Below the pieces are notes generated by a model. That model saw nothing but the letters and a program-made list of their open reading frames with translations, did not search any database and was not told the DNA's origin. From a virus (lineage: Duplodnaviria > Caudoviricetes), in IMG/VR virus record IMGVR_UViG_3300017754_001974, positions 1 to 63,684 of that record: a DNA stretch of 63,684 bases. The stretch is one strand, 5' to 3'. Below, piece after piece: positions 7,350 to 11,759 of the stretch. The translations under genes were made by a program, and so were the position numbers. Every line of letters starts with the position of its first letter. Position 1 is the first letter of the stretch.

Positions 7350-7384
7350 AGGGGAGGGAGTAATTCCTCCCCTTTATACTTTTA
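7350..7384 (+). terminator. Rho-independent terminator after MCP
   Basis: AGGGGAGGGA-GTAA-TTCCTCCCCT stem (one G:U pair, GNRA loop) followed by a T-rich tract. Confidence 0.85.
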
Positions 7385-7434: not shown

Positions 7435-8448
7435 ATGAGTGTAACAATTGTAGAAAGATATCCTAGTAATAAATCTGGAGCTATCTCAATCAAACCATAT
7501 TTTGAGTCTTCTATTTCTAATATGGGTTTAGAGAATTATGGAATGAATGTTTTTGATGGAGTATTCCATGAAGAACAATTAACTTGTATTGAAATTAATG
7601 GTATCAAAAGATACCTTACTGGATTAAATGAATTTGCCGCTGAAGTTAAAATGCTTCCAGAAGATGAAAAGGAAGCTAAAATAAAAGAAATTAGAACTAC
7701 TGTATCTGAACTTGAAAAAGATCTTGCAGCTAATTATATTGATCCAACAGATAAAGAATTCTGGAATAAAGTAAAATTGCTAAGACCAGATAATCATGAG
7801 TTTTGGGAAAAAATTGTACTACGTGTAGGAAATGAACCTACTTTCTTAGAACCTAAGACAGATCCTTATGATTTAATTAAACTAATTGCAATTAATGCAG
7901 GTGGTTTTTCTCTTGTAGCAAAAAGTTATGATGCTGCTAGACATCTACCAACTCCTCCTAAATTTTATTTAGATAAACATGAAGATACAGTAAGTACTAA
8001 AACGGAATACAAAAAGATTCGTAATAAAGCACTTGCAGAACTTCAGAAATTATTTGATAAGAATACTAATAAGTTATTCTTAGTTGCTAAAGTTGTTGAT
8101 ATTGATTCTATTCAATATAAAAAATCAACACCTAATGATATCCTATTTGAAAATATGGATAGACATATCAATGGAAATGGTTCTGAAGATAATAAGAAAA
8201 AAGCAGCAGAAAAGTTCATTGAAACTTGTGCAGCTGATATGGAAACTTTAAAATTGAAAGCTCTTATTAAAGATGCTGGATATTATAAGATTGTTTTACA
8301 TAAATCTGATGGTTTTATTTATCATATTGAAAGTTCAACTATGATGGGTAGAAATACAGCAGATATGGTAGAGTTCTTAAAAAATCCATTAAATGATCAA
8401 ATTCTTTTAGATATTACTAAAAAAGTTGAAAAGTATTGGAATTCTTAA
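7435..8448 (+). CDS. Conserved crAss-like protein downstream of MCP, function unknown
   Basis: 337-aa ORF in the syntenic slot after MCP; own promoter-like element and A-rich leader. Confidence 0.7.
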   Translation: MSVTIVERYPSNKSGAISIKPYFESSISNMGLENYGMNVFDGVFHEEQLTCIEINGIKRYLTGLNEFAAEVKMLPEDEKEAKIKEIRTTVSELEKDLAANYIDPTDKEFWNKVKLLRPDNHEFWEKIVLRVGNEPTFLEPKTDPYDLIKLIAINAGGFSLVAKSYDAARHLPTPPKFYLDKHEDTVSTKTEYKKIRNKALAELQKLFDKNTNKLFLVAKVVDIDSIQYKKSTPNDILFENMDRHINGNGSEDNKKKAAEKFIETCAADMETLKLKALIKDAGYYKIVLHKSDGFIYHIESSTMMGRNTADMVEFLKNPLNDQILLDITKKVEKYWNS

Positions 8449-8467
8449 TATATTATATATAGATATC

Positions 8468-8614
8468 ATGGCAAAGAAAAAAGTAGTAGAGTACAAGGGT
8501 ACTAAAGCTGAAGAAACATATTCTAGTAAGTCTGCAATGATGAAACATGAAAAGACTGAAGGTAAGAGTATGGAAAAGAAAGAGAAAACTTTAATGCGTA
8601 AAAAGAAGAAATAA
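8468..8614 (+). CDS. Small Lys-rich protein (48 aa)
   Basis: ATG at 8468: MAKKKVVEYKGTKAEETYSSKSAMMKHEKTEGK...; preceded by TTAATATATTA. Confidence 0.75.
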   Translation: MAKKKVVEYKGTKAEETYSSKSAMMKHEKTEGKSMEKKEKTLMRKKKK

Positions 8615-8778
8615 TGGCTACTAAGAAACATCCAGGATTTAAAGCAGTACAGAAAAAAATTGCTAAAGAACAAGGAGTTTCAATGAAATCTGCTGGAGCA
8701 ATCCTTGCAAGTTCAAGTAGAAATGCTTCTCCTAAAGCTAAAGCTAAAAATCCTAAACTTAAAAAAGTAAAAGGATAA
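8614..8778 (+). CDS. Small Lys-rich protein (54 aa; not in the ORF track)
   Basis: Read manually: MATKKHPGFKAVQKKIAKEQGVSMKSAGAILASSSRNASPKAKAKNPKLKKVKG*; TAATG overlaps at both ends. Confidence 0.8.
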   Translation: MATKKHPGFKAVQKKIAKEQGVSMKSAGAILASSSRNASPKAKAKNPKLKKVKG

Positions 8779-8927
8779 TGGCTAAGGAACTTTTGAAAAG
8801 AAAAGATGGAAGTTATTCCCAGAGAGGACTCTGGGATAACATCCGTGATAACAAGGGTTCTGGTAAAAAAGCTACCAAGAAAATGTTAAAAGAAGAGGAT
8901 AAGATAAAATCTAAATCTAAGAAATAA
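8778..8927 (+). CDS. Small Lys-rich protein (49 aa; not in the ORF track)
   Basis: Read manually: MAKELLKRKDGSYSQRGLWDNIRDNKGSGKKATKKMLKEEDKIKSKSKK*; TAATG-coupled to the previous ORF. Confidence 0.8.
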   Translation: MAKELLKRKDGSYSQRGLWDNIRDNKGSGKKATKKMLKEEDKIKSKSKK

Positions 8928-8929
8928 TC

Positions 8930-9877
8930 ATGGCAACTTTAAAATCCTACGGTTTAAAAAATAAACAAACAAATTCTCTTGTTCCTGGTAGTTTAATTAA
9001 AGCATATAAAAAACCATCACCAGGACCTTGGTATGAAGTATTTTCTGAAGCAAGTGGAGTAGTTAGTAATCCATCTGATTATGATGCTACTGTTAGAATT
9101 ACTTATCCTAATGCTGTGTTAGCAGAAAGATTTGGTACACAAGCTAAAAATTTTATTCAATCTAAAGGTTATAGCCCAGACAATATAGTATTATCTAATT
9201 CAATTTGTTCAGATGATGTTGATGGGCCTGTTTATATTGATGTTAATAATATTGGTCAAACACCAGCATCTCAGAATCAATTCTTAGGTGCATTTATGTC
9301 TGGTGGTTTAGCAGGATATCCACATACAGGTATACTAGGTATACAAGCTTGGGGATCTCATATTACCTCAACTACAAATGGTGGATTGTTTATGATTAAT
9401 ATGCCACACATTGGGATATCAAGAGCAGGCAATGTAGGTAGAATACATAGAAGAGGTAAAACTTCTACTGAATCATTAACAGATAATACTTGTGGTGCAG
9501 TTGCTACTGCAATTGCTTGGGTTGCTGCTAATGGAAGTGCTCCTGTTGTTGGTAATTTTCCAAATAACTATCAGAACTATACTTTATGTAGTATATTATT
9601 TCCATTCAAAAGTGATCTTGCTGCTTTAGCAACATATGGTGAAAAAATGGTATTTGCTACAGAAAAAATTAGATTATCTGGTAATACATTCTTAACAGGA
9701 GCTACTGGAATAGTTGATACTAATGTTGGTGCTAATGTAGATGTATTTTATTGTAGTGGTATTTTTATAAATACAGATGATGGTTTTAATGCTTATGTTG
9801 ATGTAATAGCATTTAAAAAATATAATAGTGTTGACGGATGGGTAGATTTAACAACTGAATTTTTAGCAACATTATAA
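8930..9877 (+). CDS. LCIB/theta-type carbonic anhydrase-like protein with N-terminal extension
   Basis: Ordered motifs SICSDD (C93), FMSGGLAGYP.TG..G..A..SH, MPHIGI...G.VG.I.R.G (H160) and TCGA (C188) match the Cys-His-Cys Zn site of the LCIB family. Confidence 0.8.
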   Translation: MATLKSYGLKNKQTNSLVPGSLIKAYKKPSPGPWYEVFSEASGVVSNPSDYDATVRITYPNAVLAERFGTQAKNFIQSKGYSPDNIVLSNSICSDDVDGPVYIDVNNIGQTPASQNQFLGAFMSGGLAGYPHTGILGIQAWGSHITSTTNGGLFMINMPHIGISRAGNVGRIHRRGKTSTESLTDNTCGAVATAIAWVAANGSAPVVGNFPNNYQNYTLCSILFPFKSDLAALATYGEKMVFATEKIRLSGNTFLTGATGIVDTNVGANVDVFYCSGIFINTDDGFNAYVDVIAFKKYNSVDGWVDLTTEFLATL

Positions 9878-9879
9878 TT

Positions 9880-10131
9880 ATGGCAAAGACAGCTGCTTGG
9901 CAAAGAAAAAAAGGTAAGAATCCTGATGGTGGATTAAATGAAGCAGGACGTAAATCTTATGAAAAAGAAAATCCTGGTTCAGATTTAAAAGCTCCTCAAC
10001 CTGAAGGTGGATCTAGAAAAGATTCTTTTTGTGCAAGAATGAAAGGTATGAAGAAGAAATTAACTTCAGAGAAAACAGCTAAAGATCCTAATAGCAGAAT
10101 AAATAAATCACTTAAAAAGTGGAAGTGTTAA
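9880..10131 (+). CDS. Small basic phage protein (DUF6321-like, from memory)
   Basis: AWQRKKGKNPDGGLN..GRKSY...DLKAP...SFCARM..MKKK...KKWKC, a widespread small basic protein type in aquatic phages. Confidence 0.7.
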   Translation: MAKTAAWQRKKGKNPDGGLNEAGRKSYEKENPGSDLKAPQPEGGSRKDSFCARMKGMKKKLTSEKTAKDPNSRINKSLKKWKC

Positions 10132-10148
10132 CAATTAATAACTAAAAA

Positions 10149-10430
10149 ATGGCTAAGAAAATTTTAAAGAAAGCACAAAAAGGAATGGAGATTCCTGCAG
10201 AAGGATCAGCACCTGTGAAACGAGATTCTTCTATTAAGAAAAAGTATGATTTTTCTGAAACTGAGCAAAACTTTCCAAGTGTGTCAAGAGAAATGAAACC
10301 AAAAATGACTAAGATAAATCAACAAGGATTCATAAAAAATAATGAACCTGGATTTAAAAAATCTCCATATGAAAAAAAACCAGTAACACCACCTATGAAA
10401 AAAGGTGGATCTGTTAAAAAGAAAAAGTAA
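10149..10430 (+). CDS. Small Lys-rich protein with KAQKG and MKKGG motifs
   Basis: 93-aa ORF with A-rich leader; ends PMKKGGSVKKKK. Confidence 0.75.
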   Translation: MAKKILKKAQKGMEIPAEGSAPVKRDSSIKKKYDFSETEQNFPSVSREMKPKMTKINQQGFIKNNEPGFKKSPYEKKPVTPPMKKGGSVKKKK

Positions 10431-10455
10431 TTATAAACAATTAATAATTAATACA

Positions 10456-10605
10456 ATGGCAACTAAGACAACTAAAAAAATGGCTCCAACAAAAGGACCA
10501 ATGAAAATGAAAGAAAAAGAATCAATGATGACACCTATGAAAAAAGGTGGTGCATCAATGCCAGCTTATAAAAAAGGTGGTTCAATGAAAAAAGGTAAAT
10601 GTTAA
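10456..10605 (+). CDS. Small Met/Lys-rich protein with tandem [MY]KKGG motifs (49 aa)
   Basis: ATG at 10456: MATKTTKKMAPTKGPMKMKEKESMMTPMKKGGASMPAYKKGGSMKKGKC*. Confidence 0.75.
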   Translation: MATKTTKKMAPTKGPMKMKEKESMMTPMKKGGASMPAYKKGGSMKKGKC

Positions 10606-10608
10606 TAC

Positions 10609-11313
10609 ATGAACGTAGCAACTATACAGATTAAAGTTAAGGAAAGACTTAACAAGTTATCTTCTAATGATTATGACAATATTGAATGTTGGCAGATTGT
10701 AGAAGCTTTTAATAAAGCTCAACTACAATGGGTGCGTAGACAACTTCATGGTTTTAATCAATTCAAGGAAGGTGATGAACAATCTAAACGTAGAGTTGAT
10801 GACTTACAAATACTATTAACAGACTTTCCTTTAAGTCTAAGTAACAGTCAATTGTTTTTTGAATCAACAATTTGGCCTTCAAACTATTTAGAATTTAAAA
10901 AGGTAAGTGCTTATGCAATGGATGATTGTTGTCCTGATCCAAGAAGGTTGATGGTCTATCTAACTGAAGAAGCTAATGTTGATCTTCATTTAACTGACAA
11001 AAATAGAATGCCTAGTTATGAATGGGGAGAAACGTTTAATACTTTAGTTGGTAATACAGTAAGGATCTATACAGATCAAAAGTTTATTATTTCAAGTGCT
11101 TCATTAATGTATTATAGAATACCAGTATTTATTGAAATTGCTGGATGTGTAAATCCTTATACAGGTTTAGTATCTGCAGCTAATGTTGATCCTGAGTTTA
11201 AAGATGATATTGTTGAATTATTAATTGATGAAGCAATTGGAATTTTAGCTGCTGATATAGAATCAGTTACACAATATCAGAGATCACAACAAGAAGTAGA
11301 AAAGAATAACTAA
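10609..11313 (+). CDS. Neck ring / head-tail adaptor protein (crAss-like)
   Basis: LNKLSSN, FNKAQ, EQSKRRVDDL, YYRIP and ELLIDEAI segments resemble crAss ring (tail tubular) proteins. Confidence 0.7.
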   Translation: MNVATIQIKVKERLNKLSSNDYDNIECWQIVEAFNKAQLQWVRRQLHGFNQFKEGDEQSKRRVDDLQILLTDFPLSLSNSQLFFESTIWPSNYLEFKKVSAYAMDDCCPDPRRLMVYLTEEANVDLHLTDKNRMPSYEWGETFNTLVGNTVRIYTDQKFIISSASLMYYRIPVFIEIAGCVNPYTGLVSAANVDPEFKDDIVELLIDEAIGILAADIESVTQYQRSQQEVEKNN

Positions 11314-11315
11314 TT

Positions 11316-11759
11316 ATGGAACCAAATAGAGTATTAAAAAGAACAGACTCATCTAATTACTCAGCACCAACTAGTGGTTCATTAGAATCTACTACTGCTG
11401 CTTGTGTAACAGAGTTAATGAATGCAGCAACATCATTTCATAAATTACATCTCAAAGTTCAAGGTATGGGTTCTTATGCTGGACATAAAACTCTAAATGA
11501 ATTATATGATGCTATGCATGGTCACGCAGATAATTTAGCTGAAGGATTTCAAGGTGCTTCTGAAAAGATATTAGAATATAGTGATGTTGCTCCAAGAGTT
11601 CTAAATTCTGTTCAAGATGCTATCTCATATATTAGAGATATTAATCAGATGGTTAATTCATTACAAGCTAAAATGCCTTATAGTGAAATTGTAAATGATC
11701 TTGATACAATTAAAAGTACATTGAATTCAGGAAAATATAAATTATTGTTTTTAAAATAA
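11316..11759 (+). CDS. Ferritin/Dps-like protein
   Basis: HKLHL...SYAGHKTLNELYD...DNLAE..QG and C-terminal KYKL, the Dps/ferritin four-helix-bundle pattern. Confidence 0.75.
   Translation: MEPNRVLKRTDSSNYSAPTSGSLESTTAACVTELMNAATSFHKLHLKVQGMGSYAGHKTLNELYDAMHGHADNLAEGFQGASEKILEYSDVAPRVLNSVQDAISYIRDINQMVNSLQAKMPYSEIVNDLDTIKSTLNSGKYKLLFLK

Follow-up and report, generated by a model that had tools for sequence, protein, structure and literature searches.

An LCIB-type carbonic anhydrase with a portable N-terminal handle, a candidate virion-tethered enzyme of a lake-water crAss-like phage clade

In the crassvirus PhicrAss001 the fibres are held on the virion by short N-terminal segments. The head fibres gp21, a trimer, and gp29, a dimer, dock in the hexon pockets of the capsid with residues 1-38 and 1-58, respectively, and the tail fibre gp22 docks in the tail hub with residues 1-26 (PMC10172136). 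The authors of that study expected unrecognised analogues of these fibres in other crassvirus groups (PMC10172136). Here we describe a gene of the same layout, a short separable N-terminal segment followed by a variable C-terminal domain, from a phage of the same virus order, the IMG/VR virus record IMGVR_UViG_3300017754_001974. The window, by which we mean the whole stretch of 63,684 nucleotides that was analysed, is a linear record covering 53% of a genome. The gene encodes a carbonic anhydrase of the LCIB family behind an N-terminal module of about 45 residues, which we call the handle. Tentatively, we read the product, encoded by an optional late gene of a lake-water crAss-like clade, as a virion-tethered dimer of a probably active carbonic anhydrase, a reading that we consider quite possible and stop short of calling likely.

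For the catalytic part, the comparison is with PtLCIB4 and PtLCIB3 of Phaeodactylum tricornutum and with the chains 6kfs and 9vzj. The phage protein shares with them the Pfam family and the fold, the Cys-His-Cys set, the Asp, the Arg, the equivalent of His88 and a Ser at the S47 site, and the predicted phage homodimer likewise has its active site at the interface. It differs in being just 21-22% identical to PtLCIB4 and 6kfs in the structural alignment and in an extra loop at residues 100-109, modelled with low confidence, that sets it apart from the solved LCIB chains. The 45-residue handle stands where the algal proteins bear a targeting peptide. A further difference is that a phage encodes the enzyme of the window, which falls into a phage clade of its own with a long branch.

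The open reading frame (ORF) of 315 amino acids (aa) matched PF18599 with E 1.5e-27 and 96.8 bits (cut-off 25), with residues 65-296 aligned to positions 4-220 of the 223 of the profile, and a second PF18599 search of the window record gave 97.2 bits for the same ORF. A single-sequence search with the ORF found the solved LCIB-family chains 6kfs, 9vzj, PtLCIB4, LCIC and LCIB. When the family profile was compared with the PDB, 6kfs was matched with E 3e-63 and PtLCIB4 with E 6e-58. The AlphaFold2 model of the full-length ORF had a predicted local distance difference test score (pLDDT) of 86.4 and a predicted template modelling score (pTM) of 0.80. Foldseek aligned this model to 6kfs with E 1.4e-17 and to PtLCIB4 with E 3e-17, in both cases with a template modelling (TM) score of 0.83-0.85 relative to the target; LCIB and LCIC (E 1e-8) followed, and then the canonical beta-carbonic anhydrases. 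The ORF is thus an LCIB-family carbonic anhydrase, theta-type and beta-like, and the hmmscan and Foldseek results bear out the first-pass annotation, which had called it an LCIB/theta-class enzyme from the letters alone. No family was assigned to the ORF in PHROGs, and a Foldseek search of the viral models of BFVD gave no match at E <= 0.001, the top row covering only 46 columns with E 0.9.

The handle lies outside the LCIB fold. Residue 65 is the first of the Pfam domain, and alignments to PDB chains begin at residues 48-54; the first ~38 residues had indeed been set apart from the fold in the annotation, and the boundary is now placed at about residue 45. In two loci, non-LCIB ORFs adjoining LCIB genes were matched by a hidden Markov model (HMM) of the LCIB N-termini (residues 1-45). 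When one such N-terminus was used for a scan, 41 loci were obtained, of which the 40 new ones (L165-L204) were analysed. They contain 73 handle-carrying ORFs, which correspond to 60 unique proteins of 43-627 aa, 8 of them LCIB proteins and 52 not. The search with the N-terminus alone, proposed earlier for finding variable C-terminal fusions, therefore did find the same module on 52 unique proteins of other kinds. The handle is present in one to three tandem copies per protein, and its carriers often lie in gene arrays. Ten cargoes were scanned for families: two contain Fib_succ_major, one a BspA-type leucine-rich repeat (LRR) and one Lcl_C (at the cut-off), and six gave no family. The records with handle arrays belong to the same clade as the window, with major head proteins 83-84% identical to that of the window. 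The complete genome G001 has a plus-strand cassette (91.0-98.7 kb) in which its two handle genes are accompanied by a lysozyme-like gene and by a virion structural protein of phrog_1645 (E 1.7e-124).

As a control for circularity, an HMM was built from the window-type LCIB N-termini alone (68 of 79). Among 3048 ORFs it still matched non-LCIB ORFs, down to E 1.6e-25, and hhalign aligned the window-type LCIB N-termini with the non-LCIB handles at 98.3% (E 2.5e-14, 46 columns). Modelled alone, the handle folded with a pLDDT of 80.3, and its three strands are those seen in the full-length model. The handle (residues 1-45) is an autonomous, portable mini beta-module that is reused on varied cargoes.

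Tandem arrays of two to four handle genes with unrelated C-termini were seen at 2940-6684 in L183, 4966-7177 in L170, 5992-8217 in L194 and 2879-5972 in L174. For many array cargoes of 130-160 aa no family was matched. Behind most of the array handles stands a Cys-Cys pair, and in some Thr/Pro-rich linkers follow.

The regions in front of the LCIB core differ between phage lineages. In another lineage the N-terminal motif of the LCIB protein is common to 22 other phage ORFs (85-814 aa, 53-87% identity), which are fibre-like and rich in Gly/Ser/Thr repeats, one of them with YadA-head repeats. In this YadA-linked lineage the LCIB gene has another major head protein (phrog_138) on one side and a head-tail adaptor on the other. 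The anatomy is therefore convergent: a second phage lineage also puts LCIB on a fibre-type N-terminus, with the gene in the head region.

The active site was aligned with those of the solved chains. C93-S94-D95, H160 and C188 line up with the equivalent residues of 6kfs, 9vzj and 5b5y, so that C93-x-D95, H160 and C188 are where the first-pass annotation had seen them, and C93, D95, H144, H160, R174 and C188 are among the invariant columns of a 67-sequence alignment that includes relatives down to 23-32% identity. All six residues are kept in 140 of 145 phage-type sequences (45-89% identity); the remaining five are two fragments, one C93S variant and two long variants, P0144 and P0162, without any of the three zinc ligands. 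Counted along the 5b5y alignment, His88 of PtLCIB4 stands opposite H144, and positions 102 and 126 stand opposite H160 and C188. We take C46, H102 and C126 to be the zinc ligands of PtLCIB4, as reportedly assigned by Jin et al. 2016, and the residue counts along 5b5y agree with this numbering. The S47R site, located from the alignments of 5b5y and 5b60, is flanked by the first Cys and the Asp. At this site Ser94 of the phage protein agrees with the active form of PtLCIB4, not with the S47R mutant. In CrLCIB and LCIC, the equivalent His162/161 and Arg194/193 were named as important residues (PMC5876011). Judged from its residues, the phage enzyme probably binds zinc and hydrates CO2.

The prediction of a homodimer reached an interface score (ipSAE) of 0.93, against 0.00 for the best control; the runs agreed in at least 86% of the contacts and the partner chain had a pLDDT of 90. 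In the calibration, proteins solved as pairs attained the mark for this score in 20 of 30 cases and proteins solved as single chains in 1 of 23, and the phage protein may have passed because it resembles solved LCIB dimers. Residues 94-97, 132-137, 143-144 and 174-178 are part of the interface. The enzyme is thus predicted to be a homodimer with catalytic residues at the interface.

The conservation of the site also bears on a different possibility, that the LCIB domain is displayed on the virion as a non-catalytic binding or spacer module whose zinc site is kept for the stability of the fold. The stability of the fold would not need the Asp, the Arg and the His, which are retained together with the zinc ligands in the 140 sequences, and the zinc-less variants P0144 and P0162 lie on a long branch (0.83), as expected once the constraint was lost. 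That these two variants persist is itself in line with a non-catalytic module, as is the finding that the other handle cargoes that can be named are binding domains. For CrLCIB/LCIC, too, a non-catalytic action has been proposed by some (PMC5876011). On balance we regard a purely non-catalytic module as improbable. The database proteins P0144, P0162 and P0132 have the same handle and are long variants (398-549 aa), of which P0144 and P0162 look like pseudo-enzymes with a C-terminal extension.

The handle family fits the docking pattern of PhicrAss001, and we therefore read the gene as encoding a virion-tethered, probably active carbonic anhydrase. The handle would be a plug-in adaptor that the phage clade uses on many interchangeable proteins. 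It would dock its cargo on the exterior of the virion, likeliest in hexon pockets, as gp21 and gp29, or in the tail hub, as gp22. A two-fold site would be well matched by a dimeric enzyme in which each chain bears one handle; gp29 is a dimer, and the phage carbonic anhydrase is predicted to be one. Each virion would then carry carbonic anhydrase dimers that speed up the interconversion of CO2 and HCO3- and so the relaxation of pH. The site of action would be the boundary layer or the capsule or extracellular polymeric substances of the host surface. The cargo here is an enzyme, whereas that of the PhicrAss001 fibres is an Ig-like or a phi29 gp8.5-like domain. Display on the capsid is suggested by comparative anatomy and by the PhicrAss001 precedent. 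Enzyme activity, attachment to the virion and a benefit to the phage are inferred. More doubtful is the full proposal, in which the handle of ~45 residues hangs interchangeable proteins on the virion and among them a working zinc carbonic anhydrase dimer, which would alter carbonate chemistry or pH at the host surface and thereby aid adsorption or penetration.

Several observations weigh against the virion-tethered enzyme. The handle has no sequence match to gp21, gp29 or gp22 and no fold match to any PDB chain: a search of the PDB with the handle model gave no match at E <= 0.001, and the best E was 3.8. The handle of the window, taken alone, scored E 0.014 and 9.3 bits with the HMM of the non-LCIB handles, and an antisense decoy scored E 0.018; the window's own score is weak, and the link to the non-LCIB handles therefore rests on the profiles of LCIB-family N-termini. 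It is also a variant without the Cys-Cys pair of most array handles, and no second handle gene was found in the window, that is in 53% of the genome. As to the enzyme, CrLCIB and LCIC have all zinc-site residues and are nevertheless inactive in vitro (PMC5876011), and intact residues are therefore no proof of activity. P0144 and P0162 kept the handle and the domain and lost all three zinc ligands, which argues for a non-catalytic role at least there. A physiological gain from a few enzyme molecules per virion is not evident. Finally, tblastn against 50,697 GenBank phage records (INPHARED) gave no match, so that there is no cultured carrier to supply virion proteomics.

The phage LCIB proteins form a group of their own. 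An exhaustive HMMER search gave 550 matches, of which 23 had E <= 1e-30. All but one of these 23 are 40-58% identical and 257-401 aa long; the other one is a protein of 643 aa with 29% identity. Below them, outside the phage-type clade, the identity falls to 29-36%. In a tree of 94 core domains (a quick LG+G4 search, with 74 of the 168 input rows dropped for incomplete cores), 39 phage-type sequences group with the two zinc-less variants in a single clade, whose branch has a length of 0.82 and a Shimodaira-Hasegawa-like approximate likelihood ratio test (SH-aLRT) value of 100. All phage LCIBs are one clade with lineage-specific N-termini. The P0137 type (358 aa), found in IMG/VR contigs of up to 192 kb, falls into the same LCIB clade, and the neighbours in the ESM Atlas are LCIB clusters labelled 69-93% viral. 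When the GTDB species genomes were scanned with the phage-type pattern (a 22-row alignment), a single match was obtained, on a contig of 1571 bp from a metagenome-assembled genome (MAG). The close cellular homologues that would indicate a recent capture from a host were not found in these searches, and the clade lies on a long branch far from cellular homologues; the gene was therefore not recently host-derived. The MAG contig (L210) carries the single phage-type LCIB protein seen in the species genomes (75% identity); the contig is probably phage DNA binned into the MAG and points to no host. By eye, we take the ORF upstream of the LCIB gene to resemble a DUF1566/Lcl_C-type lectin domain.

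Within the phage clade the gene is optional and is carried in a hypervariable island. IMG/VR contains 29 loci with an LCIB relative at 45-87% identity. In 23 of them the gene lies in the head module, with the head protein upstream in 22 of these, and the other 6 show no head genes nearby. For the island itself, the best 80 of at least 577 relatives of the head protein were examined (83-98% identical). Just one of these 80 has the LCIB gene, and it is absent from all 41 loci that cover both flanks. PF18599 was also absent from 10 of 10 further clade records (9 of them at least 90% complete), a search that was positive in the window. A core, fixed head-module gene was rejected on these counts. 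The first-pass annotation had placed the gene in the head module, and this stands in so far as the module is a crAss-like one, with terminase, portal and major head protein and with matches to PhicrAss001; fixed membership does not, given the absence from 41 of 41 loci and 9 of 9 near-complete records. The head proteins are ~82-84% identical and the LCIB genes 45-87%, and the gene therefore belongs to the flexible gene pool of the clade.

The gene is as tightly packed as the annotation had stated, with gaps of 2 nt that separate it from the upstream ORF (end at 8927) and from the downstream ORF (start at 9880). No terminator-like site was found between 7842 and 11900, and with gaps this short the late co-transcription of the gene with its neighbours is plausible. 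In the 41 relatives the interval between the flanking genes o337 and o234 measures 69-5013 bp and holds mostly small Lys-rich proteins and DUF6321; some island ORFs, typed by eye from the sequence, resemble GIY-YIG or HNH homing endonucleases. The small, very Lys-rich ORFs around the gene (8468-8927 and 9880-10605) have 48, 54, 49, 83, 93 and 66 aa, and their sets differ between relatives. The one of 83 aa is a DUF6321 protein (E 7.7e-23). These Lys-rich proteins may be internal, DNA-associated head proteins.

Such neighbours raise the possibility that the handle is a capsid-targeting sequence that loads proteins inside the head, in the way of the T4 internal proteins or the crassvirus cargo proteins, and that the enzyme is ejected into the host and acts in the cytoplasm early in infection. 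The N-terminus of the handle is basic, as would suit this, and storage and ejection of cargo proteins are known from crassviruses (PMC10172136). To traverse the tail, however, a folded zinc dimer would need to be unfolded. Lectin-like Fib_succ_major, BspA LRR and Lcl_C domains, Thr/Pro-rich linkers and Cys-Cys pairs are typical of extracellular, not of injected, proteins. With the handle on such cargoes, loading inside the head appears improbable to us, and we keep to docking on the exterior of the virion.

The window encodes a terminase, a portal and a major head protein. With phmmer, the portal and two tail-barrel ring proteins (R1 and R2) matched PhicrAss001; no further match was obtained when gp21, gp29, gp33-36 and other PhicrAss001 proteins were compared with the ORFs of the window. 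Therefore no auxiliary capsid protein can be named, and no head-fibre homologue was found in the window. The closest cultured relative is the Leptolyngbya phage Lbo-JY46 (PP438436.1), with 30.5% identity in the portal (E 1e-107) and 28% in the head protein, followed by Cellulophaga and gut crassviruses. Lbo-JY46, a cultured cyanophage, shares the gene order terminase-portal-x-major head protein with the window and has a large tRNA array. In the window no tRNAs were found that could give a clue to the host. Bacteroidota and Cyanobacteria are both candidate hosts; the nearest cultured relative is just 28-30% identical.

The possible hosts and the optional status of the gene bear on a further alternative, namely that the protein is a cytoplasmic auxiliary enzyme which is made late and stays in the infected cell, where it buffers the pH or supplies HCO3- or CO2 for carboxylations. 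If the host is a cyanobacterium, it could short-circuit the CO2-concentrating mechanism, and the N-terminal module would then serve, for instance, oligomerisation or solubility. A cyanobacterial host would favour this explanation, and the closest cultured relative does infect the cyanobacterium Leptolyngbya. The catalytic set is intact, and the gene is optional and moron-like and shares its island with putative homing endonucleases. Auxiliary carbonic anhydrase genes that belong to the alpha, beta and gamma classes have been described in the virome of a freshwater sponge (10.64898/2026.01.21.700432). A cytoplasmic role leaves unexplained why three or more different N-terminal modules are fused to LCIB across the phage lineages, each of them also present on fibre- or adhesin-like proteins, and the long branch far from cellular homologues speaks against an origin by recent uptake from a host. 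We therefore regard a purely cytoplasmic enzyme as unlikely and prefer the virion-tethered one.

Carbonic anhydrase genes (alpha, beta and gamma clades) on freshwater viral contigs have thus been reported in a preprint (10.64898/2026.01.21.700432), and the available text of that preprint mentions no LCIB type, virion adaptor or structural-module context. The literature on LCIB in phages or viral contigs and on carbonic anhydrase in virions, in part at the level of titles and the opening of abstracts, yielded no LCIB-type and no virion-borne case. New here are the optional status of the gene, the single phage LCIB clade and the portable handle. To our knowledge, virion-borne enzymes mostly cut polymers, as depolymerases, lysins and esterases do. 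A particle-borne carbonic anhydrase would be a tool of another kind and would alter CO2, bicarbonate and pH where the phage meets its host, and if the reading is true it would be the first enzyme of inorganic-carbon or pH chemistry to sit on the exterior of a virus particle. In one of the commonest groups of lake phages, the handle family labels a large and exchangeable repertoire of probable surface proteins, and it could serve as a natural display tag. For biochemical work the phage clade is also a source of many compact and probably soluble theta-type carbonic anhydrases, and it could help to explain the activity of some LCIB proteins and the inactivity of others.

Table 1. Position of the carbonic anhydrase gene, its parts and its neighbourhood in the window
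Feature	Position	Strand	Basis
LCIB-type carbonic anhydrase gene with N-terminal handle	8930..9877	+	ORF, ATG start, 315 aa
Portable handle, residues 1-45, three short beta-strands (5-10, 23-25, 34-37)	8930..9064	+	outside the Pfam domain; handle profiles
LCIB_C_CA catalytic domain, residues 65-296	9122..9817	+	PF18599, profile alignment, Foldseek
C93-S94-D95: first Zn ligand, Ser (Arg in PtLCIB4 S47R), catalytic Asp	9206..9214	+	C93 and D95 invariant
H144, equivalent of PtLCIB4 His88	9359..9361	+	invariant in 145/145 phage-type sequences; in predicted dimer interface
H160, second Zn ligand, PHIGIS motif	9407..9409	+	invariant; alignment to solved chains
R174, active-site Arg, RRG motif	9449..9451	+	invariant; in predicted dimer interface
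C188, third Zn ligand	9491..9493	+	invariant; alignment to solved chains
Hypervariable island holding the gene, between o337 and o234	8449..10608	+	gene content in 41 relatives
Conserved left flank o337, at the position of PhicrAss001 gp33	7435..8448	+	44-66% identical in LCIB-selected loci
Conserved right flank o234, virion structural protein	10609..11313	+	phrog_29507, E 2.1e-9
Major head protein, defines the phage clade	5713..7332	+	phrog_11589

The clade is abundant, with at least 577 relatives of the head protein confirmed in IMG/VR, and its near-complete genomes measure 111-130 kb, one of them with terminal repeats. Part of the window is present in 22 DNA runs, mostly from freshwater or lake water, one riverine and one labelled just as metagenome, and one DNA run has contigs identical to the window over the gene. 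Contigs from a freshwater RNA library cover 9143-9866 with ~91% identity; such contigs cannot show transcription, and DNA may occur in RNA libraries.

Some further features of the head module were observed. In L010 and L012 (5288-6942) the LCIB gene follows o234 and directly precedes a Dps-like gene, which makes a second insertion point in the head module. In the window a Dps/ferritin-like protein is encoded at 11316-11759 inside the head module (phrog_858 with E 6.5e-21, DUF5856 with E 9.5e-14; 43-70% identity in relatives). A strong terminator-like hairpin follows right after the major head protein gene at 7350-7373, with 10 pairs, 6 of them G-C, and then a T-rich tail. Behind the ring-protein genes, at 22460-63682, lie giant ORFs of 1798, 2307, 1524, 920, 2057 and 4096 aa, the last one unusually long; by their position they would be muzzle, cargo and virion RNA polymerase proteins.

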